Notes under the pieces: model-generated
What the model was told of the DNA's origin: nothing
The model's input: only the letters and a program-made list of their open reading frames with translations
The model's database searches: none
Translations under genes and position numbers: made by a program
Shown: in pieces, positions 4,799 to 28,615 of the stretch
Layout: every line of letters starts with the position of its first letter
How positions within the stretch are numbered: position 1 is the first letter of the stretch
Source of the DNA: a virus
Lineage: Duplodnaviria; Caudoviricetes
Strand: one strand, 5' to 3'
IMG/VR virus record: IMGVR_UViG_3300003888_000070
Span: 1-56,527 of that record
Length of the DNA: 56,527 nucleotides

Positions 4799-6430
4799 AT
4801 GAATAGCGCACCAGGGATATCAATAGAAGCAGTCCTTTCTTCAGCACCGGAACAAGCGCTTCGGGGCTACATTGGTTCATCCACGATCAATATACTAAGG
4901 GCACTCAATCCCAAAGAACTATCCCGCAAAGACCTCATTAATCTTGCGGTGCATGCTGCAGATCCTTGGCAAGTTTTAAAAAACCAAAAATTTCGTGAAC
5001 AAATAATACAGTTACTGCCGACATTGAAAGCGCAGGAATTAGCTAACAATATAGGGCTGCAAGCACAAGGCACGGCACTTTATGCACAACTAGTTAAAGC
5101 TTTTAATAGAAGAGACTTTGATACTCAGCTTTTTTTATTTTTTGGAGTAACAATCCCAGAACGATCTCCCTATTACCATGAAAAGTCAGAGAAAAAAATT
5201 CTTCCTCAATACAGTTTATTTCCTTACCAACAGCTTGTCGCAAAACGGGCACTCTTTGCCCTAGAGGAGCACCCCTACACTACAGTTGTTCACATGCCTA
5301 CTGGTTCTGGAAAAACTAGAACGGCAATGCACATAATTTCAAATATATTAAACAAAAACCCTAATAAATTAGTAATTTGGTTAGCTCAAACATCTGAACT
5401 ATTAGAACAAGCTGCCAGCGAGTTTGAGAGAGCGTGGTCTTCACTAGGCTCTTTCCCCACTACAGTCTACAGATACTGGGGTTCTTATAACCCAAATATT
5501 ATGGATGCACGATCAGGCTTTTTGGTCGCTGGCCTTGGCAAATTAAATGCGCTTTACAAAAGGAACACTCATAATTTTTTATGCCTTGGAGACCGTGCAA
5601 TCTTAACCGTTATTGACGAAGCACATCAGGCCATAGCTCCAACCTATAAATTGTTAATTGATTTGTTAAAATCAAAGAAGCCAACAAATGCTCTGTTAGG
5701 ATTAACCGCCACACCAGGACGAACCTGGGCTGACATTAACGTAGATGCGACACTTTCTGCTTTTTTTGGCCATCACAAAGTAATGCTTGAAATCGAGGGT
5801 TATTCTAACCCGATCACCTATTTAATTGAAAATGGTTACTTAGCAAACCCAACATTTAAAACCCTCAACATAGAATCTGGAATCGAACTAACGACAAAGG
5901 ATTTGCAAGAGCTAGCAGATATATATGAAATACCACCAGCAATTCTCGACCAAATTGCATGCTCAGACAAGCGCAACATTCGAATAATAACAACAATAGA
6001 AAACCTTAAAGACAAACACAAAAGAATAATTGTATTTGCAGCCACTGTAAATCATGCCTACTTAATATCGTCTATTCTTAACATACGAGGAACTAAATCA
6101 TTCGTTGTGACAGGGGATACCGACCAGACAACACGTGAAATTATACTTCGAAAATTTAAAAGTGAAACTTCTGAACCTCTTATACTATGCAATTATGGAG
6201 TTTTAACAACTGGGTTTGACGCACCTAAAACAAATGCGGCTGTGATTGCACGACCAACAAAATCATTAGTTTTATATAGCCAGATGGTTGGCAGAGCCCT
6301 TCGTGGTGAAAAAGCTGGTGGCAACAAAAATGCAGAGATTATCACTGTCGTAGACCCTGAACTGCCAGGATTCGGAGATATCGCTGCAGCATTTACAAAT
6401 TGGGAGGATGTCTGGACCAATGAAGACTGA
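4799..6430 (+). CDS. SF2 DEAH-box (ResIII-like) helicase/ATPase
   Basis: MPTGSGKT Walker A, DEAH, LTATP motif III, QMVGRALR motif VI. Confidence 0.92.
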   Translation: MNSAPGISIEAVLSSAPEQALRGYIGSSTINILRALNPKELSRKDLINLAVHAADPWQVLKNQKFREQIIQLLPTLKAQELANNIGLQAQGTALYAQLVKAFNRRDFDTQLFLFFGVTIPERSPYYHEKSEKKILPQYSLFPYQQLVAKRALFALEEHPYTTVVHMPTGSGKTRTAMHIISNILNKNPNKLVIWLAQTSELLEQAASEFERAWSSLGSFPTTVYRYWGSYNPNIMDARSGFLVAGLGKLNALYKRNTHNFLCLGDRAILTVIDEAHQAIAPTYKLLIDLLKSKKPTNALLGLTATPGRTWADINVDATLSAFFGHHKVMLEIEGYSNPITYLIENGYLANPTFKTLNIESGIELTTKDLQELADIYEIPPAILDQIACSDKRNIRIITTIENLKDKHKRIIVFAATVNHAYLISSILNIRGTKSFVVTGDTDQTTREIILRKFKSETSEPLILCNYGVLTTGFDAPKTNAAVIARPTKSLVLYSQMVGRALRGEKAGGNKNAEIITVVDPELPGFGDIAAAFTNWEDVWTNED

Positions 6431-8222: not shown

Positions 8223-8223
8223 T

Positions 8224-9153
8224 ATGATGTCGCTCGGTGACGAACTTATTATTGCGGCTAAGGCAGCTTCCAAAGAAGTGACGTTAATAGCACCGTTTAT
8301 TAAAGAGGACGCCCTAGCCAAAATACTAGCAAGCATTCCGACTGGTACTTCCATTAAAGTAGTTGCGAGATGGATTCCAGCAGAAATTGCTGTTGGCGTT
8401 TGCGACATCGAAATTTTTGACCTTATAAGTTCACGACCAGGAGCAAATCTTTATTTGCATCCATTGCTACATGCAAAGATGTATCGCTTTGACAATGTGG
8501 TCTACTTCGGTTCAGCAAATCTTACACGAAAAGCACTAGGATGGACTGGCCTAGTCAACATAGAGCTACTGCACTCTCCAGTTGAAACGGCATCAAAATT
8601 AAGAGCGTTTGAAGATAGACTCCTCAGCGTTGCACATCTTGCAGACAGATCTTATCGTTCGTATATTCAAGCACAGGTTGATCAATTTAAAGAGCATCAA
8701 TGCTCTGGTATTGATTATTTTGAAACGGAAATACGAGAAATCCCTTTACAGTGGCTGCCTACTTGCATCCAGCCCCATTTATTATGGTCGGTATACAAAG
8801 GGGATGTTGTTATGCAGAAAAGGATGGTTGAATCATCTTTCCAAGCTGCAAAATCTGACTTAGCCATGCTTGGAATTAAACCTGGTCTTTCTTTTCAACA
8901 ATTTCGATCTTATGTATCTATTGTCTTGGGAGAGATATCTATTATTAAAAATATTGATGCAAGTTCACGCGACGGCTTAACAGATGATGACGCCATTAAA
9001 ATAATTAACGACACCATCAACGACTCGGACTCCCCATACTCAGCAACTGACTTATGGGAAGTTTTTCAAGAGTGGCTTATATTTTTTTTCCCAAATAGAT
9101 ATAAACGTCAAGCATCTTCAGAAATTTTTACAATAGACAGGACTATCGCGTAA
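8224..9153 (+). CDS. Phospholipase D-family (HKD) nuclease-like protein
   Basis: HAKMYRFD (HxKxxxxD) followed by GSANLT; APFI N-terminal motif. Confidence 0.85.
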   Translation: MMSLGDELIIAAKAASKEVTLIAPFIKEDALAKILASIPTGTSIKVVARWIPAEIAVGVCDIEIFDLISSRPGANLYLHPLLHAKMYRFDNVVYFGSANLTRKALGWTGLVNIELLHSPVETASKLRAFEDRLLSVAHLADRSYRSYIQAQVDQFKEHQCSGIDYFETEIREIPLQWLPTCIQPHLLWSVYKGDVVMQKRMVESSFQAAKSDLAMLGIKPGLSFQQFRSYVSIVLGEISIIKNIDASSRDGLTDDDAIKIINDTINDSDSPYSATDLWEVFQEWLIFFFPNRYKRQASSEIFTIDRTIA

Positions 9154-9186
9154 GAACTTTTTAAAATTTTACATTTGACGCATTGT

Positions 9187-10020
9187 CTATTTATGACAGA
9201 GGACACACCCCTTAGTCGTTCCATAAATATCGTCGTTATCAACAATGTCCAAACATTGCCTTAAAGGATTCTGCCTATGTGCTGCTTTTATTTTTTTCAA
9301 TCTCTGTGCGTAGTCTTTTTGAATACTTTCTATTCTTTTAGGACAAGATAATTGTTCTAAGGATTCGCCCTGACTCCATGTAAACGGGGAACCATGCTCT
9401 ATAGCTGTTTTTTCATATTTCATAGCTTCTTCAAATTTATCAGGGTGCTCATCAATAAGCCTTACCCATTCTATTTTTTGTTGAAAAAAACAAAAAGTAC
9501 ATCCTGACCTCGAGCGCCACCTATAGTATTTTGGCAACCCAAGTCCAGATGCATCTAGAATTTCCAATATACCGTTTTTATCGACCCCGTTTTCTCTAAA
9601 AGGAAGTCTTACTTTCAGACTAGGATGAGTCGAGCTGTAACCTTCTCGGTAGTTTTCATCAGCACGTATCGCTACAAAACTTTCAACTTTTTGATTTTCA
9701 TTCAATGAAGGCTTTATCCATTGCTCAAACGGACGTAATTTTAATTGCCGTGTACACCAACGCGATTGGGCTGAAGGTAAAAAATTCTTGTATTGCTTAA
9801 GCCAAAAATCAAAGTCACGATCCGGGTTTAAATATTCTATTGGTTTTCCCAGAAAACCCTCAAGCTGAATGAGATATTTATAGACTTCCGGAAGCTCCTT
9901 CCCAGTATCAGTAAAGAAATAGTCAATGTCCAAATCGGGATGATTTTGTCGCATATACACAGCCAACGCTGCGCTATCCCGTCCTCCAGAAAGACCTAAG
10001 ACATACCGAGTAGCTGTCAT
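9187..10020 (-). CDS. sspD: PAPS reductase-family ATP pyrophosphatase, SspD
   Basis: LSGGRDS PP-loop, RWCT, RSGCTFC and terminal CVLC; last gene of the DUF4007-ATPase operon. Confidence 0.85.
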   Translation of the reverse strand: MTATRYVLGLSGGRDSAALAVYMRQNHPDLDIDYFFTDTGKELPEVYKYLIQLEGFLGKPIEYLNPDRDFDFWLKQYKNFLPSAQSRWCTRQLKLRPFEQWIKPSLNENQKVESFVAIRADENYREGYSSTHPSLKVRLPFRENGVDKNGILEILDASGLGLPKYYRWRSRSGCTFCFFQQKIEWVRLIDEHPDKFEEAMKYEKTAIEHGSPFTWSQGESLEQLSCPKRIESIQKDYAQRLKKIKAAHRQNPLRQCLDIVDNDDIYGTTKGCVLCHK

Positions 10021-13000
10021 GACTGAGTCTCTTGCCTGTTGAACTGTTCCGCTATTATTTGTGTACTAGTCACCTCATCAAGATACCTGGCGCTAATCTC
10101 TGCCAGAGCCGCAAGAATGATATTTCGTTTGGATCGGTCCGCTGTCTTCAACGCCGTATCGACGTGACGAATGACCGTCTCGACATCTGCCCGATCCGTA
10201 TCCGTAACTTCGAACTCGCCAGAGACTGGCGTCGGTCGACCACCAATCCCAACCACGACGGCCATGGCTTGACGCTTGTCAGGCCTTCCCTTAACCCGGG
10301 CAAACGCTTCTGCACGGATGAATTGCTGTGAAATAGCTGCTAGCTCTAAATTCGCTTGATCAAGGTCGGCATCAACCCAATTCTTTGGAGATTTACTCAC
10401 GACAAGCGCGGCGATGCCGTCCATATCTGCTTCTGATCCAGAAAACTTCATAAGACGACTTATGAATGCATCCAGACGATAATCACCCGTTAGTTGATGA
10501 ATATTCTTTGCCCGCCCTCTTAAATCTGCCAAAGCACGCGTCGATTCGTTTGGCACCTGAAGTTCCGCCATCATTACCGCGCGAAGACGATGCAGCATAT
10601 CGCTATAAGCAATAGTCAATTCATCAATTCCGTCTTTTATTCTCAAAAGCACATCATCAATTGCAGTAGCATCAGACGCATCGTCAAGAAATACCCGAGG
10701 GATATCATCAAAAATGAACTTATTCGGATCGCGTGCTTGCTTAAACAAATTTCGAACCGTTGTTGCATTTTTTGACAACAAATGAGTCCGTTTAGCCCAC
10801 TGTGGCAAACCATCATAAATTGAAACGAGACCTCGAGCGACGTCAATCGGTTCCATGCCTACAAGCTGTTCACCACCGCCTTGGCCCTGGACCACTTGGG
10901 CGAGCCCGGACAAGATATGCCGAGAGGTATCGGACAACTCCATCCACCGGATCTGAATGGAGCTCGGGTCAATAGCAAGATAATCCACGTCAAGGTCGGT
11001 GAAACGGGCTTGGAAAACTCCCTCTCGATAAAAAGCCAACTGGTTTTTATACCCAAGGATAAAGGCGACGCCGAGGATTGGCAGCATTCCCTCTTTGATC
11101 CCGAAGGGAGCGGCCCGCCAGCACGAGTACAGCTCCGACAAATTAATCGATCGATCAGAAATCGAAGACACAAGCTCGAATGCGGCCTTCCAAGCAGGGG
11201 CGAGATAGGATGGGTCATTGTCTGGCTCAGGAGCAGTAAAATGCCAGCCTTGCTCCGCATTCTCCCGGTACAATCGGGACTTCAACAGAATCGAATCAAA
11301 AAGACCGCCCTCCGCCGGATAGCCCTCGATACCCAGGCGAAGCTCACCTTCCCCTTGGACCATTCGCTTTAATAGAGCTTTCTGCGCTGCGACTGCATTC
11401 GACGAAGGCTTGACGCGATTTACGAGTTCATTTGGAAGACGCGGACTTTCCGAAAACATCTTATCGGCAAGAGTCGAAGCAAGAACATTGAGTCCCGCAA
11501 AGGAATGACGTTGCGGCTTTTCGTTAAGCTGAAACCAATCAGCTGTATCAAATATTTTTTGGAGATCTGTCTCTAAACGCGTTCGCAAATTTGCTATTCT
11601 TGCAAGCACCTCACGCCGTGCGACACTATCTCCAGCCAATTCAGGACGCTCTTCACGCACTCTGCTGATCGCTAAAAACTCCTTAGCAAGCTGAAGCACA
11701 TGCCAGGCCTGTCCCGACAATCCTATTACTACACACCCTTTCGCAGTTGATACTGCTTCATGACAAACTGAATGCGCATAAGCCGCTGATTCATTGGCGG
11801 TTGGAATCGCGAGTAAAAACTTTCCGATTCCTCCCCCTGGAAAAGGAGCCGCTGAAGCTGTTGCAAGAGCATCGCTAAGAGGGATCAAGTCGGCATCGAA
11901 CCATCGAAGCGCCCCTGTCTTATGATAGTGGCGTTTTGCCAAAATAGGCTGAAGGCCCGCAAGGGCTCGGAGTTCATGAAAATTGACATCAGGCAGATTC
12001 GCAAGCGCTTCAGTCAGGGCTCCTTCTATGTCAAAGTCACTTCCTGCATAAATGGCGTAAGAACCAAGATGTTTTCGAAAAATTATAAAAGACCAAGCGA
12101 CTAAATTTTCTAGCGCTTGCGCAACTTTTTGCGGGGGTTCGTTTGCAAAAGCAGCTTCTACCAGCTCGGGAGTGGCTATCAATCCAGATCGTTCGCGAAA
12201 TAAATCAATAAGCGAGATTGTTTTTAACAGCAAGACTTGCAGTGGCTCAGTCCCAATGGCCTCACACCGTTCGATAACTTCGACGGCCATTGACCACCTA
12301 TGCCCATCTGGTGAGGCCAAGATAGCCGACTCAAGGTTGGATCGCAGATAATCCCAAAGACGATCAGGGGTGTAGAGATCCTCTTCCCTGGCACTGCGAA
12401 GAAAATCTTGAAAGCCATACGGTTCAGCCGAACTAAGAAATCCAAAGAGCGAACGCTGGTTCTGCCCGAAGCGACGCCGCGAGATCGGTCCGAGGAGACT
12501 GGACACGACTGGATGCAGCGGCCAGCATTTTTTGAGAAATTTTGAAAGATCAGCAGACGCTGAACGATTCGCTCTGATCACTTCAGCAACAGCATTTATA
12601 CTCAAAATATCTGGGACATCACCCTGCACTTCAATCGCTCTCGAAAGAAGTTCAAGGTGTTCATCGCCACTGACATTGACAGCAAGGTCAACAAAACGCC
12701 CCTGAACTTTGGCCCATTCATCGCGCAGTTCTCGTGCGATCCGCTGTGCGTACTCATCAAACGCCTGATGCAGAATGCCAACGATGACGAGACGGCCATT
12801 GCTCCGGGATGCTGCTTCAGCAAGTTGCTGAAACAAATAAATATCTGTGCCACGTTGGGACGCTGATTCAAGAAATTTACCCATCTCATCAAGAATAACA
12901 ACGAGACCATCCTGGCTTCTGGATTCAGCTTCAACCAAATCAGTGAGAAGCTGGACAATCTGGGTATCCGTCCAGGAAGATGTTTCCTCCGCCGGAATGA

Positions 13001-13406
13001 ACCCTCTGGCGACCAAGGCTTCGCCGATCACTGCGGCAGGGTCTCCCCTGCGTCCAACCACGGGCAAAATTCGCCAGCCCTTCCCCCCCGGTGGTAACGC
13101 TTCCCACAAGGTCTGAGCGACCTTGCTTCCAACGATGTTCGCGGCTTCATCGCGCAGTTGCACATTCCCGTTCAACAAAGCGCCAAGTGCAACAACAAGG
13201 CTCGACTTCCCGCTGCCGTAAGGCCCAGTCCATGTGAATGCCGCCTGCCCAGTCTCTTGGACATGTCTTGCCATCGAAAGAATGACTTCCGCAGAGGACT
13301 GTGGGCACACAAACCCTTCGAGCGCGCGAGGATCACCGAGATCCGTGTCGATGCGGATCGAGCGTTGAAAACGACGCGCGACATGAACGTAATCAGAAAG
13401 TGCCAT
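10017..13406 (-). CDS. sspC: Large P-loop ATPase, SspC
   Basis: RFQRSIRID N-terminus, GPYGSGKS Walker A, ILDEMGK Walker B, WPLHP, FGQNQRSLF. Confidence 0.85.
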   Translation of the reverse strand: MALSDYVHVARRFQRSIRIDTDLGDPRALEGFVCPQSSAEVILSMARHVQETGQAAFTWTGPYGSGKSSLVVALGALLNGNVQLRDEAANIVGSKVAQTLWEALPPGGKGWRILPVVGRRGDPAAVIGEALVARGFIPAEETSSWTDTQIVQLLTDLVEAESRSQDGLVVILDEMGKFLESASQRGTDIYLFQQLAEAASRSNGRLVIVGILHQAFDEYAQRIARELRDEWAKVQGRFVDLAVNVSGDEHLELLSRAIEVQGDVPDILSINAVAEVIRANRSASADLSKFLKKCWPLHPVVSSLLGPISRRRFGQNQRSLFGFLSSAEPYGFQDFLRSAREEDLYTPDRLWDYLRSNLESAILASPDGHRWSMAVEVIERCEAIGTEPLQVLLLKTISLIDLFRERSGLIATPELVEAAFANEPPQKVAQALENLVAWSFIIFRKHLGSYAIYAGSDFDIEGALTEALANLPDVNFHELRALAGLQPILAKRHYHKTGALRWFDADLIPLSDALATASAAPFPGGGIGKFLLAIPTANESAAYAHSVCHEAVSTAKGCVVIGLSGQAWHVLQLAKEFLAISRVREERPELAGDSVARREVLARIANLRTRLETDLQKIFDTADWFQLNEKPQRHSFAGLNVLASTLADKMFSESPRLPNELVNRVKPSSNAVAAQKALLKRMVQGEGELRLGIEGYPAEGGLFDSILLKSRLYRENAEQGWHFTAPEPDNDPSYLAPAWKAAFELVSSISDRSINLSELYSCWRAAPFGIKEGMLPILGVAFILGYKNQLAFYREGVFQARFTDLDVDYLAIDPSSIQIRWMELSDTSRHILSGLAQVVQGQGGGEQLVGMEPIDVARGLVSIYDGLPQWAKRTHLLSKNATTVRNLFKQARDPNKFIFDDIPRVFLDDASDATAIDDVLLRIKDGIDELTIAYSDMLHRLRAVMMAELQVPNESTRALADLRGRAKNIHQLTGDYRLDAFISRLMKFSGSEADMDGIAALVVSKSPKNWVDADLDQANLELAAISQQFIRAEAFARVKGRPDKRQAMAVVVGIGGRPTPVSGEFEVTDTDRADVETVIRHVDTALKTADRSKRNIILAALAEISARYLDEVTSTQIIAEQFNRQETQS

Positions 13407-14383
13407 TATACAGCCTCCTTGAACTTTTGCGAATTATAAACCTTTCGCATTAGTTCAAACAAATCATCCTCACTCAACGGCACCTTCCGAAAAGCCTGCT
13501 TTAAACCTGCCGTCTCTGACCAAGAATAAACTCCTTTTGTAAGCTCATCCATAGCCAACAACCGATCCGAAAGATCTATCTCATCCAGCAAAAACACTCG
13601 CCCTGGCGATCCCGGTTCATGAGCAATTGTCTCAAAGGACAAAGTTTTCCTGTCACCATACTGATTCCAGAAACTATTTAATGCATAGATAAAAACTTCG
13701 TCTGGCAGAGAACGCTTCGATCCACGTATAAATTGAAAATTCCCTTTTAATCCACGAACAAGTCCAAGTTCTGCGAGTGAACTCTCAAGATTATCTTCTA
13801 CACTTCCAACATCTCCAGTCGGTCTACTTTCGTATGTTCTAACAAAACATTCTACATCGCGCTGCACAGTTGTCCGTGAGACTCGTGACCAATTTCGTGT
13901 TTCTGCAAGCTTCATTAATCCGTCAACCAGAGCATCTCTTCGAAACGTAACACCACTAAAGTAATTAAATGCCCAATACCAAGTCGTCTTGAGGCTTTGA
14001 AACGAGCTTCCTGAACACAGATTCCAGTGCAATAGCCATAAGCTAGCAGGGTGCTCAAGATATTTATCTACACCTTTTTTCGATCTGAATAAAAATTTAC
14101 CGAACTCAGTCACAACTAACTGCCCAGTTTTTTCTTTTTCCTTGATCACGTTACAGGCTGCCGCCCAATGCCGCATCGACTTAACCATATTCTTACCAAC
14201 GCCAAAGCGAGCAATAGCTTCATCACTTAAAAAAATAGACTTATTGTCGGGATCATTGCGTGATGCAAACACCGCGTCATAGGCCTTTTTAAGCCACCCA
14301 TAGCGCAGAGGAAAGGTTTCATGTCCAGAAAACAGGGGTCGATACTCAGCTTGATGGAGCAGTCCGCGTCTCATTTTTACCAC
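13406..14383 (-). CDS. sspB: DUF4007-family protein, SspB (nicking component)
   Basis: FSGHETFPLRYGWLKK and FGVGKNMV signatures; start codon uncertain. Confidence 0.85.
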   Translation of the reverse strand: MVKMRRGLLHQAEYRPLFSGHETFPLRYGWLKKAYDAVFASRNDPDNKSIFLSDEAIARFGVGKNMVKSMRHWAAACNVIKEKEKTGQLVVTEFGKFLFRSKKGVDKYLEHPASLWLLHWNLCSGSSFQSLKTTWYWAFNYFSGVTFRRDALVDGLMKLAETRNWSRVSRTTVQRDVECFVRTYESRPTGDVGSVEDNLESSLAELGLVRGLKGNFQFIRGSKRSLPDEVFIYALNSFWNQYGDRKTLSFETIAHEPGSPGRVFLLDEIDLSDRLLAMDELTKGVYSWSETAGLKQAFRKVPLSEDDLFELMRKVYNSQKFKEAV

Positions 14384-14484
14384 CTGGAAGGTTTATCCAG
14401 GTCGACAATACCGAGGCTCGGAGGTATAGTCAACCGAACTGGCCCAATCCTCCAGGCGGGCCAACAGTCCTACGAGCAAAGACA

Positions 14485-15651
14485 ATGCCCACCCAAAATT
14501 CAGTTCATATTTACTTGGATTATCAGGCCACAACCCCTGTCGACCCTCGCGTCGTAAACGAGATGGCACCTTATTGGTCTGATTTTTTTGGTAATCCGCA
14601 CTCTTCAGACCATTCTTTCGGATGGCAAGCCCATGAAGCTGTTGAGTCGTCACGCGCTCAAATTGCCTCACTCATCGGGGCTGATCACGAGGAGATCATC
14701 TTCACGTCCGGAGCGACTGAATCAAACAACCTCGCCATCCTCGGAATCGCTAGGGCAATGCCCTCAACCCGACGGCGCATCATTATCAGCGCAATCGAGC
14801 ATAAATGCGTCATTGCCGCTGCCCATGCTGCTATTCGCGAAGGTTTCGAAATAGTAATGGCACCGGTCGGCAGGGATGGAATCATTGACCTGCAAGCCCT
14901 TGAACACTTGATTGACGAAAGAACTGCTCTCGTTTCTGTTATGGCTGTGAACAATGAAATTGGGACCATTCAGCCAATTCGTGACATCTCAAAATTATGC
15001 AATAAACATGGCGTATTATTGCATTCAGACGCTGCCCAAGCGCTTTCTATTCAAGCGATAGACGTTGATGACAGTGGCGTAGACCTCATGAGCTTGTCAG
15101 CGCATAAAATTTACGGGCCTAAAGGCATTGGCGCTCTCTACATACGAAAAGACATCGCAATCAAGCCTGAACCGATAATTCACGGTGGTGGACAAGAATT
15201 AGGATTTCGGGCTGGTACAGTGCCAACCCCTCTTTGCGTTGGATTTGGAAAAGCTTGTTCCATACTTGAATCAGAAATTGACATCGAAGCATCTAAACTA
15301 AAGAAATTACAATTATATTTTACAGATGTTCTTCGTTCTCTTGACGTTCAATTTTCAATAAACGGATCGCTGACACATAGGCACCCAGGAAATTTAAATA
15401 TATTATTCCACAAAATTGATGCAAGCTTATTATTAAACGCTATTCAGCCAACGATTGCAGCATCAACAGGTTCAGCTTGCAGTTCTTGGATTCCACATCC
15501 TTCACACGTACTCCGAGCTATCGGACTATCTGCAGAGGAATCTGAATCGTCTATCAGATTTAGCATTGGAAGATTTACAAATCATGACGACATAACATAT
15601 GCATGCAAGAGATTGAACACTGAAATACAAAGGATTTCTGAAATTTTCTGA
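14485..15651 (+). CDS. sspA: Cysteine desulfurase (IscS/DndA family), SspA
   Basis: YLDYQATTP, SAHKIYGPKG (PLP Lys), STGSACSS (catalytic Cys); divergent from sspBCD. Confidence 0.9.
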   Translation: MPTQNSVHIYLDYQATTPVDPRVVNEMAPYWSDFFGNPHSSDHSFGWQAHEAVESSRAQIASLIGADHEEIIFTSGATESNNLAILGIARAMPSTRRRIIISAIEHKCVIAAAHAAIREGFEIVMAPVGRDGIIDLQALEHLIDERTALVSVMAVNNEIGTIQPIRDISKLCNKHGVLLHSDAAQALSIQAIDVDDSGVDLMSLSAHKIYGPKGIGALYIRKDIAIKPEPIIHGGGQELGFRAGTVPTPLCVGFGKACSILESEIDIEASKLKKLQLYFTDVLRSLDVQFSINGSLTHRHPGNLNILFHKIDASLLLNAIQPTIAASTGSACSSWIPHPSHVLRAIGLSAEESESSIRFSIGRFTNHDDITYACKRLNTEIQRISEIF

Positions 15652-15683: not shown

Positions 15684-15917
15684 TCATGGAAAATACTCTA
15701 TTGGTACTCCCATTGCTAACATTTCCCTCTGCCGCCTCTCCGGCAACGGCTCCGTACAACTCACCAGCCACTTCCCCGGTGCAGACTTATGCACCCCCAT
15801 CTTCTGCGCCAGGGCAGCCAAAGTAAGCCCCTCCCCGCGCAGCCAGAGCTTTAGCCGTTGCTCCCGTGGCAATGCCGACCAGTCCGTTGGCAGGACCATG
15901 CCGCTTGGTCTGCTCAT
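15684..15917 (-). CDS. Second Cro-like XRE HTH protein (77 aa)
   Basis: LTLAALAQKMGVHKSAPGKWL HTH; C-terminus LAMGVPIEYFP resembles LIALGVPAELLP of 2799-3071. Confidence 0.7.
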   Translation of the reverse strand: MSRPSGMVLPTDWSALPREQRLKLWLRGEGLTLAALAQKMGVHKSAPGKWLVSCTEPLPERRQREMLAMGVPIEYFP

Positions 15918-16072
15918 ACCCACACGTATCTGCGGTCGAAGAATCTGATCCGACCGGCCGCCAGGAGTTGCTGCACCGTAAGGACCACATGCGCCCACAC
16001 CCGACAGAGACAGGCCCGGACATCGATCACCCCTGATCGGACGGTGCGCCAGGCTGTTTTCGATGTCAGCAT
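15914..16072 (-). CDS. Small hypothetical protein (52 aa)
   Basis: Start overlaps the upstream stop and its stop overlaps the next ATG (coupling at both ends). Confidence 0.4.
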   Translation of the reverse strand: MLTSKTAWRTVRSGVIDVRACLCRVWAHVVLTVQQLLAAGRIRFFDRRYVWV

Positions 16073-16842
16073 GCCATACCCTCCCGACGGGGCCTGAAGC
16101 AGGCGAATTCCCAAAAGGTGGCGTCCGCCCAGCACAGGCGTATCCCTTCAACGCCGGCATGATAGGTCGGCATCGGCTTGAAAAACCGGCATTCGGGACA
16201 AGGGGCAGCGCCGGCCAATGGTTTGGACCGGACAAAAGGCTGTGCAACCGCCGTTGCTTCCTCCGTGGCCACCGACTCTGCCGCCTCACGCTCTTCCGAT
16301 TCCACCGGCTCTTCCTCTGGCAGCGGCGCGTCCTGCTTCAAGCCGACCACGCCCAGCAAACGATCCAAGGCCGCAACATCGGTACGCTGCAGTACAGCAA
16401 ATCCCTTCTCCCGGACGAATCCTTCCACCAGTGAATCCACCCACAGGCAACGCAGGCCGCTCACACCCTGGAACTGCTCCTGGTGGAGCACCCGAAAGCC
16501 GAGCATGACCAGCCAGTCCGCCATCAGCAGAGACCGGCGTTTGCGCAGCTCCGGCATCACCCGCCGGTTATAGGCCGTCAGGATAAACTTGACCCCGAGC
16601 CTGCCCTCATCGATGTCGGGCCATAAGGTGGCCAGGGTCTCGGCCAGGGCCAGCTCGGCCGGGTCCGTCACATTCGCCGGCGGATCAAATTCATGCCACT
16701 GGGAGCAGGACAGACAGGCCTTTGGCCGCGTCGGCAGATTCGACAGCGAAGACGACACCGGCCGGGTCCGATTCGCCTTGCATTGCGTCGGGCTGAGCCG
16801 GGCCTTCAACCCCAGGCAATCAAACAGCACCACATGATCCAT
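16066..16842 (-). CDS. Hypothetical protein with Cys clusters at both ends (possible Zn-binding)
   Basis: C..C..CLSC at the N-terminus, CPEC..C..C at the C-terminus; AGGA RBS. Confidence 0.65.
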   Translation of the reverse strand: MDHVVLFDCLGLKARLSPTQCKANRTRPVSSSLSNLPTRPKACLSCSQWHEFDPPANVTDPAELALAETLATLWPDIDEGRLGVKFILTAYNRRVMPELRKRRSLLMADWLVMLGFRVLHQEQFQGVSGLRCLWVDSLVEGFVREKGFAVLQRTDVAALDRLLGVVGLKQDAPLPEEEPVESEEREAAESVATEEATAVAQPFVRSKPLAGAAPCPECRFFKPMPTYHAGVEGIRLCWADATFWEFACFRPRREGMAC

Positions 16843-16868
16843 TCAGTCATCCTACGGCCAGATTGAAG

Positions 16869-16921
16869 GGCTTGATCGATTAAGCCGCGCGTCGCGGCAC
16901 GCAACGATACCGGACCTAGCT
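16869..16921 (-). ncRNA. Putative guide RNA: eight period-5 NGY-NN units plus 3' hairpin (vrRNA-like)
   Basis: Minus strand AGC-TA GGT-CC GGT-AT CGT-TG CGT-GC CGC-GA CGC-GC GGC-TT, then hairpin GGCTT-AATCGATC-AAGCC; begins 2 nt after the RAMP gene stop. Confidence 0.65.
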
Positions 16922-16922
16922 T

Positions 16923-17573
16923 TTACGTCGCACCCTGGGGGACAAGGTCAAAGGCGAACCGACCGAATCCCCCGCCCCGAAACTGACCAAGCCCTTTAAT
17001 CTGCCCATATTCCAGAATCTGCTCCACAACGCCCCATTGCACCTCGCCGTGCGGCAACAGCCCTATCCAGACGTCAAACGAAATCCCGGCGTTGATGATC
17101 TCGGAGGTGGCGATGCAGCTCATAGGCCCCTCCTTGGTGATCCGCCGCAGCGGCCTCCGGAATATCCCGTTCGGCTCCTTTTGCAGCGGAATGATCCGGG
17201 GACCGCAAAAGAGATAGCGAGTCAGTTTGTTGCGCAGAGCGGCAATGCCCTGCTTCGTGGTTTTGGTCCGTTTGACCATGGTTTCATGCTGCACAATATC
17301 CTTAAGTGTATTGCCGGCCTCCTTGAGGAACCCAAAGAACTGGTAATCCAGGATGGAGCACCAGCCATCCTGGTTGCGCAGAAACACGGTTGTGCGTTCA
17401 TCCACGCCTTCCGGCAACATGGCAGCCTCTTCAGCCCCCTCCACGTCGGGTTCCGGAGCCCTGGCCGCCACCAGATCCTGGTACACCTGCCGCTGCGACG
17501 GCAACGAGCCCAATATCGGCTCAACCAGGGTGATTTTGTATGTCCGGTATTCAATCCGGTCCGATAACGACAT
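16923..17573 (-). CDS. Stand-alone Cas7/RAMP-superfamily protein (Vipr-like)
   Basis: N-terminal strand YKITLVEPILGSLP, helix YQFFGFLKEA, C-terminal glycine-rich loop GLGQFRGGGFGRF typical of RAMPs; no other cas genes in the window. Confidence 0.8.
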   Translation of the reverse strand: MSLSDRIEYRTYKITLVEPILGSLPSQRQVYQDLVAARAPEPDVEGAEEAAMLPEGVDERTTVFLRNQDGWCSILDYQFFGFLKEAGNTLKDIVQHETMVKRTKTTKQGIAALRNKLTRYLFCGPRIIPLQKEPNGIFRRPLRRITKEGPMSCIATSEIINAGISFDVWIGLLPHGEVQWGVVEQILEYGQIKGLGQFRGGGFGRFAFDLVPQGAT

Positions 17574-17582: not shown

Positions 17583-20500
17583 CTACTCCCCGTTTGCCGC
17601 CAGAGCGCCCCAGACCCGTGCCGCCCGGTCCATTTCCCGCTTCTCCCGCTCCCGCAAAATCTCCATGCGCCGGGCCTTCACAACGTCATTCAGGCGCAGC
17701 CTGCGCAGTTCGGCCATGTCTGCATGGATCGACTGCACCCGGCCGACCAGGGCGCGCAGCCGCGGCAGCCGCATTTCGCTGCGCACAGCCATGGCACCTT
17801 TCATATCCCCGGCATCGCGCAAGGCGTCATAGCGCCCCTTGGCGTCCAGATAGGTGCGCCGCAGCTCGTAATAGGGGTGGGACAAGCCTTCGATGTCCCC
17901 GGCGTCCACAGCGTCAACGACTGGGGCGGCCACTGTTTGGCCGCCTAAGCGCGCCTGCTCCCGCTTGGTGGGCCGGGACAGCCGTTCGGTCTGGCGGAGC
18001 AAGGATTCCCTGGTAATGGGCGCAACCCGGCCGGCCAGCCCGGCTTCGGCCACGTCCTGGTTGTAGTCGGCCACGGCTTCGACCAGGGCCTGCCGTTCGC
18101 CGGCATCCCGGCCGCCATCCAGGGCAAAGGCCCGGAACCGGGCATAGAGCCTATCCCGGCGGTCGCCAAAGCGCCTTTCCTCGGTGATGGCCTCGCTGGT
18201 GCGGTCCCTGGCCCGGGCCTCGCGAAGCGGCCGGAACCCCAGCGCCTTGGCCACGGATTCGCCGGCCGTGGGCCGAAGCGGCTTCCCATCCTCGCCGATG
18301 ACCGGATAGTTCTTGCCCGTGGTCACACCCTGGTTCGATTCGCGCACAGCCTGGAGGAACTTGGATACGCCTGACGGCAAGGCCTTTTCCGCCGCCCGCC
18401 CGGGCTGGCCGCCGGCCAGATAGCCCACGGCCGAAAGCACGTCCTTGGCCATGCCGCCCACGGGGCCAAGCACGTCGGTCCAGGTATCCGGCATGTCGAT
18501 CATGGTCCCCAGGCTGCCGGACAGGTCCGCGCCGGTAGCCAGCCCCAGCAGGCCGAACCGGGCTAGGTCTTCGGCCCCGCCACCGAGGTTTTTGACCAGG
18601 AAATCGTACACCCACCTTTCCGGGTCATCGTCGCCGCCGCCGGCCGCAACCAGCGCCTTGGCCAGCGACGTCAGCACATGTCCGCCAAGCCCGCCCAGAA
18701 CAGCCGGCGCAGCCAAAGCGAACGTGGCCGCCTGCCAATCCTTCCTGGCAAACAGCTCATGTACGAGTTGCAAATAGTTGTGGCCGTACTTTTTGTAGAC
18801 GTACCACGCCTGCCCGACCCGCGCCCCGGCCCCGGTCCCCCAGGTCCAGGTGGGTTGGGTGGCCCGGTCGTAGACGCCGTGCGCCCGGTCCGACGCCTCC
18901 CTGGCCCGGGCCACGGCCGTGGCATGGCCGGCCCCGCCGGCCCCGCCGGCCCGGGCCAGCCGGTAGCCGGCCAACAGCGTCGCCCCCCGGTTTAGCTGTT
19001 CCGTGGCCCCGAAAAGGAGCATGGATTTGCCCATCAGCCAGGACCAGCCCCGGCCGGCCGTGTCGCGGTAGACGCTCAAGGCCTCCCGGGCAAACTGCGG
19101 ATCATCCAGGGATTCCCGCCGGATTTCGTCCAGGAGCTGCTGTTCATCCGCCGTAAACCGGCCCCATTTGCCGGTCATGCGGCCCAGGTAATCGACCATG
19201 CTCCGGGCAATCTCGCGCCCGACCCGCGCCCAGCCGCCCTTGCCCTGCATGGCATAGGCATGGAGCGCCGCCGGCACCGACGTGGCCATGCTGCTCAGGT
19301 TGACGAGCGCACTCTTGGGATTGAGGCCCAGGTATTTGAGCGACGCCACCGACTTGGCCAGGGCAAACACCCGGTCCCCGGACTCGGCGTTGCGCAGGTT
19401 CTCGGCCAGATAGTCCACAGCCAGCCGGTACGTGTCGCGCTCCTTTTTGATGTCCAGGCCCGGCGTCTCGGCAGTGCCGAAAAGCACCTTGGCCGCCTTC
19501 TCTGCCGCCTCCATCTTGGCCAGCCCATAGGCCGTGGACCCGGCATAGCGGGCAAAACGTTCCACCGCGTCCTTGAAATAGCCCTGCACCACGTCGCCGT
19601 GCCGGCCGCTGCGCCGAATGGACTGCGACCGGAAGCCCCGAGCCTTCACCTCGTCAGCCAGGTTCTCCAGGATCTCGCCCACCAGCCCGGCGTCCACATC
19701 CTCGCCCACCTGGTTGACCGCCGACTCGACCGTCTTGGCCAGCTCCAGGGTCTTGATAAGCCCCTGTGTCGCCTCGGGCAGCTTGTCCAGTTTGCCCACC
19801 GGCTCCATGTCCCAGCCGTCCCGGGCCATCGTGGTGCGCAGCTTTTCAGCCGACTTGCGCCATTCCTTGTGGGCCCGGAACCGCTCCACCGTCCCGTCCG
19901 CAGCCGTGCGCTGGCCGCGCACCACATAGTCCCCGGCCTCGCGCAGACGCGGCGCATAAAAGCCCCGCAACTGGCCCATCTTCTCCACCATTTCGGCAAA
20001 GGAAAACGCCGTGCCGTTTTCGTCGTGGAGCTTCACATCCGAAAGCTGGCCCTTGATGGTCACCCCGGCCTTGCGGGCAGCGGCCACCACGCCTTTCACT
20101 TCGTCGGCGTAAGGAGCCAGTTCGTCGGCCAGGGTCTTGTCGGTGTTGTAGCCGGCCGCATCGAAAGCCTTGGCCGCATCGGCCGGGATGCCGGCGTCAA
20201 TCAACCGGCGCACGATCTTGCGCTCATAGCCGCTACGCGCCTTGTCGATGAGCTTGCGATAAGAGGCCAGCCGCTCATCCAGCAGCATGTCGTAGCGTTC
20301 GCGCATGGTGCGCCACAGGCCGATGGTGGCCTCGTTGGCCCCATGCTCGGCAAACCACGTCTCCATGGCCTCCGGCCCGACCTCGTTGACGTCGGCGTAG
20401 TCCACGCCCTCGTTGAGGATGTCGCGTTGTTTCTGGTCCTTGAGGACGACTTTGGCTTCCTGGTTGATGGTGCGCCCGTCGCCCAGGTCAAAGGCCTGGT

Positions 20501-23500
20501 GCAGCAGTTCATGGGCGCGGTCGGTGCGGCCCCGGAACGTCTCGTACAGGCGCTTGAGCACCGGATGCTGCCAGTATTCCGGCGACCGCACCATCTTGCC
20601 CAGCACCCCGGTTTCCGACAGACCATGTACCCCGGCCAGGATGGAGCGGACATTGGCCGAGGCCTCGTCTTTGAGCCAGGTGGCCACGTCGCGCTTTTCT
20701 TCCGGGACGCCGGCCAGATCGCCGGTGCGGGCGAAGCGGGGGCCACTTCCTTTCTGGGGCAGCCCCTGTTCGTACTTGACGAGATCAACTTCCGTGAATA
20801 TCTTTCTCTTGTCCCTGGTTGGCATCTCTGTGGGCAATTGCAGCCCGAAAGATCTCTGCCAACCAGGGACTTTCGTTTTATCCCTGTAGAGTAACCCACC
20901 ATCACGAATCTGGTTTGATACCCACTGCGGCTGTGTCCCCCGGGCATGGACGCTTGCGACCTCGTTGATCTCCGCACGCCCTTCCCGAACATTCAGATGT
21001 ACTGCTGCGACCAGGAATGAACCCTGATGCGGCAACTCCGTCACCAGCACCAGACTATCGGCCCAGGTGGCAGACTTCAGGACAACGACAGGTCGCTCCA
21101 ACGCTTGCGGCAACTGTTTCAGCACTTCCGGTGAAACCCCGTGCTTCCCGCCTGCATCCGCCCCCTTCAATATTTTATTCGCTTTCGACTGGGTCATTTG
21201 CAGGGGCAGATCATGTCCGCCAAGCAGCCCGATCACCGGCGGTGTTCCGCCAAGGTCGAGACGCTCGTGGGGATGAAACCGATTGCCCAGGAAATCATCC
21301 ACCTGCTGCGCCCAGGAAGCCCCTTCCCCGCGTGAAAACGCCGGCGCGACGTTCAGCGGCTGCCCCAGCGGCGCAATGAAATCCAGCCCCTTGCCGTCCA
21401 CAAAGTCATCGGCCTGGGCGAGCAGCTGCCGCAACTCGGCCCGGGTTAATTCCAGCGTCGGAAAGATTGAGCGCACCCAGGCGGCGATTTTGGACAGCAG
21501 CCGGTCCAAGGCGCGATGCACCGTGCCGTCCTTGGCCCAGGACACCAGGATTTCCTCGGCTGCCTCAGCCCGGGTTTGCCGGGTGGAGTCCAGACCGTGG
21601 CGCGTGAGCCAGCGCGACACCTCCCGGGGCATGGCCTGGGCCGCCTTGCGCATGTACTCCTCGCGCTCCTGGGAGCCGCCCAGTACCCGATCCAGCCCGG
21701 CATGGCGGCCTTCGTGCCGCAACAGCGTCTGCACGAACGCCGCCTGCCCTGCCTTGACCGTGGGGATGTTCCCGGCCACCAGGGCAATGCGCTTCGTCTC
21801 GGCGTCATAGGCCCCGTGGAACCGCCCGGACACCCCGGCATCCTCCACTGCCTCGCGCAGATCCGCCGGCATGTCGGCCTCGGACTGGTACACGTCCACG
21901 ATGCCCCGCAAGGCCGGAAACTGCGCCACCCCCCGGCGCAGTTCGGCCGCCACTGCCCGAGCAATCGGGGAAGACACGGGAGGCGTTGGGCCGTTGCCAC
22001 GCCGATAGAGCGGCTGGCCTTTCATGGCCGTCCGCTTCATGGCATCGGTCAGGTCGAAGGACCAGACTTCTGGGCCGCGCAATTCCTGGAGTGCCTGCTG
22101 CGCCTTGGCTTCCGTCCCGAACGGCCCGGCTACGTCTCGGCCGTCCTGGCCTCCCTGGCTGAAATCAGAGACAAACCACTGGCTGCCGTCCGTGCCCTGC
22201 ACCACTTCATAGACCCCAGGCAGCCTCGCTGTTTCAACCTTCCCACCAAACTGCTTGATATACTTGGCGACTTCCTTGGGCAAAATCTGGTCGTAGAAGC
22301 CACGCATCCCTTCGCCGCCGACCTTGAGGTCCAGGCCGGAAAGCGCCTTCCAATCTCGATACGGTGACCTGTTGGTGGGGCGGCCTTCATCACGTTGTAT
22401 TTTGTCCGCGACCTCTTTGCCGGCGAGTTCCTCAATACGGGAAAGTGGAATCTCATCTTCGTGGACGACTTCGATGCCAGTCCTGTCGTAGGCAATAAAT
22501 TCGTACTCCCCAGTCGGATTGCCGCTGTCTTCGTCATAGACCGCCTCGTATTCGACGCGATCAAGCTGCTTCGACAAGTCATACCGCGCCGCCTGCATCT
22601 CTCCAGGGGTCCAGGACACTCGATCAAAGCCCTTTTCGGCGGCGTAACGGATCATGCGCTTCATGGCCAACATGGCCCAAGAGGAGGTGTTCTTGAATGG
22701 AGCGTCGGGGACGCCAGTGTCTACGGCAGTCCCCCGATTCTGATCTGCATCTGCGAGAGCCTCTTCGCGCGTGTCCCCAAAGCCGATGGCGTCGCCGTTA
22801 GCGTTTCGAATCTCCCAGGCAGGGCCGCTTTTGGTTTGAATCTCGTTGACCGTCTCCTCGCCACGATACCCTTTTCTCTTCCCCTCCTGATGCCAGTCGC
22901 TTTGAATCTCCTCGATATGCAGGACGCGTTTACCGTCGTGGTCGACTCGCTCGTTGAAGCGGATGTGGGCAAGAACACCTTCCTCGTCCCAATGCTCAGT
23001 TGCGTATGCTCCATCAGGGAGTGTAAGCAATAACTCCTTGTATTTATTGCCACCTGGACTTTGATAATTGGAATACTGAGTCTTTCCGTTGCCACCTGAC
23101 ACCTGGGAGGCAAGGACATCGCTTTCAAGAAGCCCCTCAATCTTTTCTTCACGACTCAAAACATCAAAGTAGGCCGGGTCTACGCCTGGGAAATAACGAT
23201 CAATCCAGTCTGGCGTATCAATGATATATTCGGCACGTCGCCGCATCGCATCTTCAATAGTTTTGTCCTCTGGTGAAACGTCCTTCACTACCTCCACCAC
23301 ATCAATTTGCCGCGTCGCGATTTCATCCAGCACGTCCTGGCGCGTAACCAGCCGTTCCTGCAGCCCGGACAGCCAGGACTTTAATCCAGACTCTTCCAGC
23401 TCCACGCCCTTGAACTTGCCGACGTGCTTTTCGATGGCCGCCAGCATTTTTTCGGCCGGCGCGGATTTGGGCAGCATTCCCGGCATCTCCAGGACGCGCT

Positions 23501-26500
23501 GCATCTGGGAATAAAAAACCGGGGCCACGGTACCATCTGTGGAGGAAGAAACGGCAGAAAACTCGCCGCTCCGGCTGAACATGGCCACGCCCCGGCCCGT
23601 CTCCTTCGTCTTGACCGTCTGGAAGAACTTGTCGAAAGCGGCGTTGATGGCTTCGCGTTCCGCCCCTTCAGGGAACGGCCGGACGTTGAACAGCCGGTAT
23701 TCCAGCATGGCGTTGTTCGCACCATAGACAAGGAAATCGCTGCGGCCGCCGTCCTGCGCCACCCTATCTTCCACGTAAGAGGAAAACGCCCGGGCGGCCA
23801 ACTCGTGGGGTTCGCTCCAGTAATCCGACGTCCTGCCCTGGTCCATGAGATAGGCGGCGCGCCGGTATTCCGTGGGAATCTGCTTGGTCTTTTCCGTCTT
23901 ACTCCTGGCGTCTTCCAGCATCTTCGCTCGCCTGGCGAAGTCCTGGACATTGGCCGCCAGCGAGTTGAAGGGGCCTGTCCGTTCCGCATTGAATCCGCTA
24001 CGGCCGCGAACCTCCTTGTAGATCGCCGCAAGGCCGTCGAGAATGTCGTTGCTGGAGCGGTAGGAGCCAAACCGGCTGCGCTGCCGCCCCCCGGCCTCAT
24101 TGCTGCGCATCTCCAGGGCCAGATTGTCGCCGCTTAAAAGCTGTTCCGCCAGGGCGTCAAACCGCGCCAACTGCTCGGCCGTGGCCGGTGCGCGCTTCCT
24201 TCCCCACTGTGCTTCCTCGGCGAGGCCAGCGCGGATGTCCTTCAGACTCCGTTCCAGATAGCCCCGGGCGCGACGAACAAACTGCTCGGCCTTTTCCGTG
24301 TCTTCCTTGTACTGTTCCGCCTTGTAGGCGATGTCGCCAAGCAGCTTTTCATAGGCCCCCCGCAACGCTTCGCGCACCTGGGACTTGCGGCTTGCCCCGT
24401 GGCTCAAATAGTCCCGCGAAGGGGCATCACTGGCGGCGAAAACCTGATCGCCGCGCTTGTTCTCCACCTTCTCCGACGATGCCTTTGTATCCTGCCGCCC
24501 GAGGTAGTGATCCAGCGCATGGTACCACTCATGGGCTAGGGAGCCGGCCCCGGTCAGCTTAGTCAGGTTGATGACGCCGTAATCCCGCTCGTAATGGGCT
24601 TTGGCGCTGGAAAGGCCCCGCCCGCGTGAGCCAAAGGCCAGGGCCAGATCACCATTAAGGGAAAGCGCTTTAGGTGGAATATTGAGGATTTCGGCCAGAT
24701 CAAGCAGACCGTCATAAGCATGGTTGAGCACTTCCTGCCGCTCGGCCTGGTCGTTCCACTCCCCGAATTCCACGCCACGGAAGCCAAAGGCATCCAGGAA
24801 ATCCTGGCCCTTCGCCGGCCCCTCGCGCCGGGGCGCACCCTTCCGAAATACCTTTTCCGGTCTGGCCAGGATCTCCTCGCCAAACCCGGTCTTGGTGTTG
24901 AGGATGTCTTCGGCATGTTCGGCCATGTACCGCTTGGCGTCTTCCTCCGTGGCGAAGCCGTCCTTGATGACCACGGTCTTTCTGTCCGTGACCTTTCGAT
25001 AAATCTCCCAGGCGTCGCCGCGCTTCGTGACCCGGTGCTTTAAGGATACGGCAGCCAGCGGGATGGCCGCTTCGGCTTCCTCCTTGGAGTCGAACTTGAA
25101 CCGCCCGGTGCGCAGCGTGCCCTTCTGGTCGGCAATGGACCAATAGGTTTTGTCCTCGCCGGAGCGGAACCCGGTTTCACTGACCTGGACAGCCACGAAC
25201 CGCTTTTTCCAAGCGGGCACGGAGTCGTCTTTCCCAGGCAAACGGACGCGAGGGCCGGTCGGCGCAGCCGTATCCTTGCGGGAGCCGCCAATCTTCTCCC
25301 CAAGGGCGAGACCGATCTTTTCGCTTGGCTCCGGGGTCGCCGCACCAGCAGCTTCTTCAGGCCGACTTTCGGCGGCAGAGGACTCGTTCTGTTCAACTGC
25401 CGGCGACGGCTCGATAGCAGCCCCAGCGTCCCCGGGCAGCACGGCGGCCTGATCCTGGACACCACCTTGCACTTCGCCGGCGGCCACGCCTTCGGCCTTG
25501 CCCACCTTAGCCGGCTGTTCGGCCTCGCCGACTACCGCGTCATACGCCGCGCGCAGCTTCAGTTCCGGCGTATCGAAAATCGCTTCCAGAAACCCCAGCC
25601 GCGACTTCCGGCCCGGCTTGACGCCAAGGGCCTTGCCCAGGGCGTTTTGCTGGTCAGGGGTCAAAGCCTGCAACGCCTGCCCGCGTGTGGCGGCGTTCAT
25701 GGGATGCGGCGGTTCCGGCGGCCGTCGCGCAGCAGCGACTGCTTCCGCCGGGGTGTTGCCGCTGTACTGCGAAATCTGGTGCTCATCCGAACCGGCAAGA
25801 GCGTTTAGAACGGCATAGCGCGGCGGCATCCCCTGGCCCATGACGTTGATGGTTTTGACGCCTTCGTGCTCAACAACAGGCACCTCCCGCAATGTGTCGC
25901 CGGACCAGACCTTGGCCGTCTGCGGTGCGCCAACGGCACCGGGCTGCTCCTGCCCCGGCCCGGCCGCCGCCTGCCGCGCCTGCTCGATCCGTCCCACCAG
26001 ATCGTCCCGGCGAATCGCCACCGGCCGCTCGATGCCAAGCGACGTGGCCAACGCATTGAGTTCCTTCTTGCTCCTGGCCTTGAGGTCTTCGGCCGCCGGG
26101 GCGGCTTGCGCTCCCTGGATATCGGCTTGGGGCTGCCCAGTATCGACTGGGGGGTATCCAGCGACGTCCCGGGCCTGTCCAGCAACGTCCTGCCCCGCCG
26201 CCTGCCGTGCCTGCTCGATCCGTCCCACCAGATCGTCCCGGCGAATCGCCACCGGCCGCTCGATGCCAAGCGTTGTGGCCAGCGCATTGAGTTCCTTCTT
26301 GCTCCGGGCCTTGAGGTCTTCGGCCGCCGGGGCGGCTTGCGCTCCCTGGATATCGGCTTGGGGCTGTCCAGTATCGACAGAGGGGTATCCAGCGACGTCC
26401 CGGACCTGTCCAGCAACGTCTCCTGCCGGCTTTTCTCCCACTGCCAAAAGCGGCACTTCGCCGGTCGGCAGCACCCCGGCCGGGGACTGCTCCACCAGGG

Positions 26501-28613: not shown

Positions 28614-28615
28614 TT

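Follow-up and report, generated by a model that had tools for sequence, protein, structure and literature searches.

The virus record IMGVR_UViG_3300003888_000070 from IMG/VR (Caudoviricetes), analysed here over its whole length of 56,527 nucleotides (nt; referred to as the window), probably carries a VIPR locus, in which a stand-alone RAMP of the Vipr family is paired with a single guide tract made of a short, relaxed xGY/NN repeat. The locus comprises a gene for a 216-amino-acid (aa) protein, vipr, and, directly beyond its stop codon on the same strand, a 35-nt tract of seven pentanucleotides; its carrier is an SU10-like provirus. This reading follows from the RAMP fold of the protein, its full-length homology to the clade of the Vipr from phage SUSP1, the non-CRISPR proviral context and the same-strand arrays that stand beside most homologues. 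An earlier reading made from the sequence alone (the sequence-only reading) had suggested a VIPR-like, CRISPR-free RNA-guided system at this position, an interpretation that the comparative sequence data support. The VIPR systems to which it referred are in print as two preprints from 2026 (bioRxiv 10.64898/2026.04.26.720920 and 10.64898/2026.04.26.720927). There, Vipr is a stand-alone RAMP borne by phages, its RNAs (vrRNAs) consist of 9-16 YNNGG units followed by a 3' tail, and DNA is read through an xNN code with a 1-nt skip (bioRxiv 10.64898/2026.04.26.720920).

The 216-aa open reading frame (ORF) was confirmed at 16923..17573 on the minus strand, and the RAMP-type glycine-rich loop recognized in the sequence-only reading lies at residues 194-206 (GLGQFRGGGFGRF); the C-terminus of the protein is GLGQFRGGGFGRFAFDLVPQGAT. 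A fold search returned a RAMP fold. The best matches among solved structures and hidden Markov models (HMMs) were CRISPR Cas7, Csm3 and Csm4, the fold library ending at 2026-04-08 and containing no Vipr structures. Searches of Pfam, PHROG and PADLOC assigned the protein to no family. Its own family is large, with 1217 cluster representatives at E≤1e-3 and 601 at E≤1e-10; the members, drawn from many phyla, are stand-alone proteins of ∼200 aa without Pfam cas annotation, and are called 'hypothetical' where they are named at all. Aligned by hhalign, the family profile (A1) matched the single SUSP1 Vipr sequence at 91.6% (E 8.4e-7, 173 columns) and a 32-sequence profile of the SUSP1 clade (A5) at 96.7% (E 3.2e-10), the 174 columns of the latter running end to end. 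Homology to reference Vipr proteins, which the preprint sought by PSI-BLAST from X1U2U4 (bioRxiv 10.64898/2026.04.26.720920), is found here by hhalign, and PDB chain 36pp_D, 'SUSP1 Vipr protein', was also retrieved, more weakly, in a profile search. At the level of sequence, these data indicate that the 216-aa product is a Vipr-family RAMP. A tblastn search of 50,697 phage records with the protein gave four unannotated matches, SUSP1 not among them, while homologues in host genomes were limited to three distant loci in genome contigs, with no match in 400 further genomes of one phylum. Long metagenome contigs (762,859 and 1,128,124 bases) encode the identical protein.

The surroundings of the gene are those of a phage. 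The window encodes a large terminase, an SU10-type portal and adaptor, a major capsid protein, DnaB and a replication initiator, and the records of four of the five closest relatives are classed as provirus. vipr starts 9 nt past the stop of a gene whose 3676-aa product is, given its MuF_C, LPD1 and Rho_N domains, a large polyvalent virion protein, and an 80-nt spacer separates vipr from a co-oriented ORF of 258 aa. A scan for direct repeats (copies ≤120 nt apart) revealed no CRISPR array in the window, only seven families of 2-3 copies each; comparison with the ORF lists placed all seven within long ORFs, and they lack regular spacing. None of 41 candidate ORFs of the window matched a cas family in Pfam. 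PADLOC, applied to 11 window ORFs, returned cas-named rows that were only partial and weak (Cas3b and type IV DinG; E 1.6e-8 to 5e-6), and the ORF concerned is a helicase (4799-6430) lying 11 kilobases (kb) away, for which PbeA scores far better (9e-26). Repeat scan, Pfam and PADLOC therefore agree with the sequence-only reading that the 56 kb hold no other cas gene or CRISPR array. The locus has the non-CRISPR viral or proviral context of VIPR and lacks the co-encoded cas genes and array that define a class 1 CRISPR Cas7.

Read along the minus strand, the stop codon of vipr is followed by AAG and then by CTAGG TCCGG TATCG TTGCG TGCCG CGACG CGCGG, seven YNNNG units with the NN dinucleotides TA, CC, AT, TG, GC, GA and GC. 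Neither strand of the window has a longer run of such units, the next longest being six units (39242-39271). A possible eighth unit, CTTAA (16880-16884), has TT or TC as its NN in relatives. Of the period-5 tract that the sequence-only reading had placed after the stop, 16885-16919 stands, as seven units starting 3 nt past the stop, but 16869-16884 is a conserved, hairpin-capable tail and not repeat. Similarly, the period-5 units with variable NN were upheld, but their consensus is xGY/NN (YNNNG) instead of the strict GGY/NN given there. No Rfam family matched the tract and tail region. The 35-nt tract is most likely the single guide RNA of Vipr.

Comparison across the family provides the strongest context for the tract. 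Eighty viral loci encoding a homologue, collected with a 12-sequence alignment and including near-duplicates such as L016/L017 and L037/L039, were scanned for strict, gapless YNNNG runs of at least six units; the same script recovered all four published SUSP1 vrRNAs on the strand of the gene. The 5-nt periodicity that the sequence-only reading had proposed to look for beside homologues was present on the same strand in 65 of the 80 loci, which together contain 258 runs, compared with 2.55 per 80 loci in shuffled sequence, and 226 of these runs sit within the 1-kb bins flanking the gene. On the opposite strand, 23 loci together contain 54 runs; many of these runs, on inspection, are CNNNG, a pattern that reads identically on both strands. 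Run lengths are mostly six (138 runs) or seven units (71 runs), and runs are often chained by one extra base, giving periods of 31 or 36 nt, with CAAAG then G as a frequent end. An alternative consensus of the kind described for VIPR (NNNGG, YNNNG or NNNNG) is therefore found across independent members of the clade. These sequence data show that the 35-nt tract is a member of the class of pentanucleotide arrays that accompanies the Vipr family. In L012, L054, L071 and other loci, up to 29 chained YNNNG runs occupy both sides of the vipr homologue (∼2000-3000 and 3600-4500). Such long chained arrays offer a rich set of natural guides from which the targeting rule of the clade could be deduced.

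The closest loci show how strongly the tract is retained. L001-L005, whose proteins are 88-97% identical to that of the window, have the same tract directly after the stop. The vipr genes of L002-L004 share 78-79% nucleotide identity with that of the window, the synonymous divergence (dS) of 1.5-2.0 being saturated and the ratio of nonsynonymous to synonymous divergence (dN/dS) 0.03-0.04; dN/dS is 0.07 for L001. The 35-nt tract, by comparison, shows only 1-3 differences from L001-L005, in three columns (unit 1 position 4, G/C; unit 6 position 1, C/T, a pyrimidine either way; unit 7 position 4, G/A), while the NN positions and the final G of the units do not change. On this comparative evidence, the tract is under strong purifying selection. 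Three changes would all land on positions 1 and 4 with an arithmetic chance of ∼0.06; the register is therefore no more than suggestive, and the overall conservation is the strong point. L006-L009, with 55-61% protein identity, also have, by eye, period-5 units in this position, though with a different NN content, which fits the expectation for a programmable element. That the NN code of the single guide stays the same in diverged relatives implies that its target is conserved. Beyond the tract, a 42-nt extension is also conserved in L001-L005 and terminates in GTAGGA, the ribosome-binding site of the 258-aa ORF; its GAxCRAGCCC motif recurs in L007 and L009. A GGCTT/AAGCC hairpin is possible at 16869-16886, using the last two bases of the tract, and L001 displays one compensatory change in the stem (GGCTC/GAGCC), few diverged sequences being available for covariation.

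The relaxed consensus has a potential counterpart in the protein. In SUSP1 Vipr, G1 is contacted by H17 and D177, G2 by R138 and W178, and Y3 by E71, M72 and R179, among other residues (bioRxiv 10.64898/2026.04.26.720927). The hhalign alignment pairs D177-W178-R179 of SUSP1 with Q197-F198-R199 of the window protein, and H17 falls opposite a gap. Gln occupies the Asp177-equivalent position in 70 of 73 aligned family members and in each of the 78 loci in which the motif could be located. Position 4 of the unit is G in 31% of 1598 clade units, compared with 76% in SUSP1, which has Asp. Because Gln197 takes the place of the G1-contacting Asp177 and His17 has no counterpart, the constant part would be xGY, and the sequences fit a relaxed or lost recognition of G1 in the Gln-type clade. 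The change from Asp to Gln at the G1 contact goes together with a repeat that has lost its first G and may be a determinant of specificity, one that could be used to engineer the constant part of the guide. Elsewhere in the protein, codon 151 (17121-17123) specifies Met, which L001-L005 share together with a nearby 'RRITK' that replaces 'QAMT'. Here, an RNA-contacting arginine of the thumb region may have been relocated.

By analogy with the published systems, the tract would be transcribed together with vipr, co-transcription being suggested by the lack of a separate promoter nearby, and the transcript would be trimmed to a small vrRNA. Approximately one Vipr protomer would then bind each 5-nt unit, holding on to the constant G-Y and leaving the NN exposed, such that the filament could read double-stranded DNA as a gapped xNN code of ∼14 specified bases with every third base skipped. 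The predicted outcome is repression of transcription of a competing mobile element. For this clade, the sequences point to a relaxed recognition of the first G and to short guides of 6-7 units.

Candidate targets were sought under this and other rules. With the published rule, searched as the 1-nt-skip pattern TAnCCnATnTGnGCnGAnGC, the best site in the window matched 11 of 14 bases, equal to the permuted-guide null; the records of five close relatives contained one match with two mismatches and four sister-clade records contained none. The guides of L007-L014, searched against the window, were all at null. A 16-base version gave seven exact matches in viral contigs, representing three distinct sequences, which were judged uninformative since no control pattern was scanned. 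In the window, skips of 0 and 2 nt, and NNN with a 1-nt skip, were likewise all at null. Contiguous NNN (guide positions 2-4) matched 18 of 21 bases at 35685-35705(+), 13 of them contiguous, a score reached by 4 of 1500 permutations, this being one of 10 rule/length combinations tried. The site lies inside the gene for a 616-aa protein (ORF 34745-36595, minus strand). No contiguous-NNN site with ≤3 mismatches was present in the records of the five relatives, the DNA of the 616-aa gene was not found in four of these five records and had no match in viral contigs, and the exact contiguous 21-mer had 0 matches in viral contigs. On these sequence matches, the site is a lead only: chance, or possibly a self-target under a non-published rule.

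Several observations weigh against the VIPR reading. Only three of the seven units (1, 2 and 7) are canonical YNNGG, with at most two in succession (CTAGG TCCGG), whereas a canonical vrRNA has at least four in tandem; the tract is consequently missing from the list of window YNNGG runs of at least three units, and the primary screen of the preprint, which requires at least four YNNGG units (bioRxiv 10.64898/2026.04.26.720920), would miss it. With seven units it is also shorter than the 9-16 reported for type II VIPR. A YNNNG run of at least seven units arises somewhere in 50 of 300 block-shuffles of the window (17%), and the tract, taken alone, is thus not significant window-wide. The shuffle mean is 0.177 such runs per window on both strands, which scales arithmetically to ∼1.3e-4 for the 80-nt spacer on the strand of the gene, and the comparative sequence data are convincing in placing the tract well beyond chance. 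On the minus strand, the tract has no flanking promoter or terminator match. As shuffled sequences fold just as stably as the 83-nt region (z 0.31), a structured tail is not established. Strict runs of at least six units are lacking at 15 of the 80 homologue loci; in two of these, L006 and L009, the tracts are, by eye, broken by a single imperfect unit or by slippage of 1 nt. In an hmmsearch of the family profile against PDB, type VII Cas7 (E 3.4e-5) and Csm4 rank above SUSP1 Vipr (36pp_D, E 0.097). The window and L001-L005 have Met at residue 151, where 69 of 73 aligned family members keep Arg. Finally, the Asp/Gln comparison includes a single Asp-type locus, SUSP1, and is based on alignment, not superposition.

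These points lend themselves to other explanations. The protein could be a genuine Vipr and the tract an intercistronic regulatory element, governing for instance translation or mRNA stability of the 258-aa gene, with the orphan Vipr using guides encoded elsewhere or none. The tract does lie between two co-oriented genes with a ribosome-binding site 30-40 nt further on, conservation covers the whole 80-nt spacer and not the tract alone, runs of its length are not rare in the shuffles, and a 6-base-pair GC hairpin is possible inside it. We nevertheless consider such an element unlikely. The internal hairpin is disrupted in L002 and L003, which retain the Y/NN/G pattern; substitutions in the tract keep the pentamer register, affecting positions 1 and 4 only; and, by eye, a period-5 tract stands at this position in all nine closest loci, its NN differing in L006-L009, just as arrays adjoin the gene on its own strand across the family. 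Quite improbable, in turn, is a decaying or repurposed VIPR remnant, in which the protein would persist with a general role, structural or in binding RNA, while sequence-specific silencing would no longer be directed by the guide. The replacement of a near-invariant Arg151 by Met in the subclade, the lone short guide with its degenerate GG, the lack of a target in any record searched and a relative (P0178) in which the N-terminus of Vipr is fused to an ORF258 homologue could all be read in this way. Against this, dN/dS is low (0.03-0.07) and the ORFs of the window and of L001-L009 are all intact and full-length, which speaks for a maintained function; the NN positions, too, have stayed unchanged while synonymous sites became saturated. 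Met151, moreover, is common to six diverged sequences and is thus itself conserved, which counts against a remnant.

The ranking of CRISPR Cas7, Csm3 and Csm4 as the best solved-structure and HMM matches might alternatively suggest a stray Cas7 captured from a classical CRISPR-Cas system (type III, IV or VII) and unrelated to VIPR. The fold library is devoid of Vipr structures, and the explanation has a very small probability: it would have to accommodate the lack of an array or other cas genes in 56.5 kb, the 1217 representatives of a ∼200-aa stand-alone family without Pfam cas annotation, the full-length profile homology to the SUSP1 Vipr clade, and flanks that hold pentanucleotide arrays and not CRISPR repeats.

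Within the preferred VIPR reading, a tentative and rather doubtful extension is that the Gln-type clade reads a relaxed xGY/NN repeat with guides of 6-7 units and that, in the Solidesulfovibrio/Desulfovibrio-associated subclade, the system has become a domesticated programmable repressor with a fixed single guide and a conserved regulatory target in the host or in the element itself. This proposal is prompted by the 14-base code, which is unchanged while the synonymous sites of the gene saturate; the targets of SUSP1, in comparison, are described in the preprints as fast-changing and shaped by an arms race (bioRxiv 10.64898/2026.04.26.720920 and 10.64898/2026.04.26.720927). In a bolder variant, position 4 would also be read, giving a contiguous triplet code, and 35685-35705(+) in the 616-aa gene of the phage would be the self-target. 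Once host contigs are searched, a guide that is constant across deep divergence can reveal a VIPR target outside such an arms race.

The 258-aa ORF lies directly downstream of vipr in all nine closest loci and in 0 of the 71 others. It has eight conserved Cys and 10 homologues, and the three entries that name an organism are from Desulfovibrio or Solidesulfovibrio; these named homologues point to one of the two genera as the probable host. Pfam, PHROG and PADLOC identified no family for the ORF, the Atlas gave no usable match, and an AF2 model was unusable (pLDDT 43.5). Its constant position makes it a candidate accessory (vap) gene of the subclade. In P0178 (192 aa), the first ∼45 residues correspond to the Vipr N-terminus (MSLSDRIAYRTYKITLVEPILGSLPSQRQVYQDL) and are joined to the middle of the ORF258 homologue, which reflects either a deletion that fused vipr to its neighbour and removed the guide tract or a gene-calling artefact. 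A small ORF (15684-16289, minus strand) is kept downstream of ORF258 in L001, L004, L005, L006 and L009. Its C-terminal ∼80 aa resemble a helix-turn-helix by eye, Pfam finding none, and the ORF, at the provirus end, may be an additional gene with an accessory or regulatory role.

Elsewhere in the window, PADLOC identified a complete SspABCD phosphorothioation module (E-values 1e-106 to 0), with PbeA-like, MzaB-like and PLD/DrmC-like ORFs beside it (Table 1). By gene content, 4799-15651 is a defence island inside or abutting the provirus record. Between the portal and the lysis-region genes is a gene for a patatin-like phospholipase (44755-45882, minus strand; Pfam E 2e-28; PADLOC 'Effector Phospholipase', E 2.7e-69), which may be a phage-borne effector or a lysis factor.

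Table 1 Features of the vipr locus and of the neighbouring genes in the window.
Feature	Position	Strand	Description
vipr gene	16923..17573	minus	216 aa; ATG start, TAA stop; stand-alone Cas7-like RAMP
Candidate vrRNA guide tract	16885..16919	minus	seven YNNNG units
Candidate vrRNA tail and intercistronic spacer	16843..16884	minus	conserved 3' extension, 42 nt
Cys-rich ORF directly 3' of the vipr locus	16066..16842	minus	258 aa; candidate accessory (vap-like) gene
Polyvalent virion protein gene	17583-28613		3676 aa; MuF_C, LPD1 and Rho_N domains (Pfam)
SspD	9187-10020	minus	PADLOC
SspC	10017-13406	minus	PADLOC
SspB	13406-14383	minus	PADLOC
SspA	14485-15651	plus	PADLOC
PbeA-like helicase	4799-6430		beside the Ssp module
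MzaB-like HATPase	6408-8222		beside the Ssp module
PLD/DrmC-like ORF	8224-9153		beside the Ssp module

The closest described relatives of the locus are the type II VIPR systems of SUSP1 and P. fulva. Phage SUSP1 (KT454805.2) encodes its 195-aa Vipr at 28474-29061 on the minus strand, flanked by the four published vrRNAs. The type II systems and the locus in the window share a phage-borne, stand-alone protein of ∼200 aa that adopts a single-RRM RAMP fold and whose G-loop has the form GxGxWR..FGRF, a same-strand period-5 RNA gene adjoining vipr and a small downstream ORF, in the window a candidate accessory gene. The differences are also substantial. The SUSP1 protein is only ∼20% identical to the one described here and has Asp177 and His17, in contrast to the Gln and the missing His17 equivalent of the window protein; G occupies position 4 in 76% of its units, compared with three of the seven here and 31% in the clade. 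SUSP1 has four guides of 12-15 units (by the YNNNG criterion) located in a long intergenic region, whereas here one guide of seven units starts 3 nt past the stop. vap1 of SUSP1 encodes 146 aa, while the downstream ORF here is Cys-rich and encodes 258 aa. The preprint distinguishes seven VIPR types with accessory genes vap1-6 and describes alternative repeats (NNNGG, YNNNG and NNNNG), staggered arrays and single-guide loci (bioRxiv 10.64898/2026.04.26.720920). The clade's chains of 6-7 pentamers plus one extra base, with periods of 31 and 36 nt, resemble the 'staggered arrays', and loci with a single vrRNA are mentioned there too; the compact single-guide, seven-unit arrangement 3 nt past the stop would provide a minimal cassette for expression studies.

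CRISPR Cas7 backbones (type VII Cas7, Csm3 and gRAMP) are more remote in organization, as the locus has no array, Cas5, Cas6, large subunit or spacer-repeat layout. According to the two preprints, CRISPR Cas7 advances by 6 nt with five paired bases, whereas VIPR advances by 5 nt with two guide bases per unit. The novelty that the sequence-only reading had assumed is largely taken by the 2026 preprints, and this clade may already appear among the types tabulated in the preprint. The locus is a new example of an already described CRISPR-free RNA-guided system, not a new kind of system, and extends VIPR to an SU10-like provirus from environmental metagenomes.
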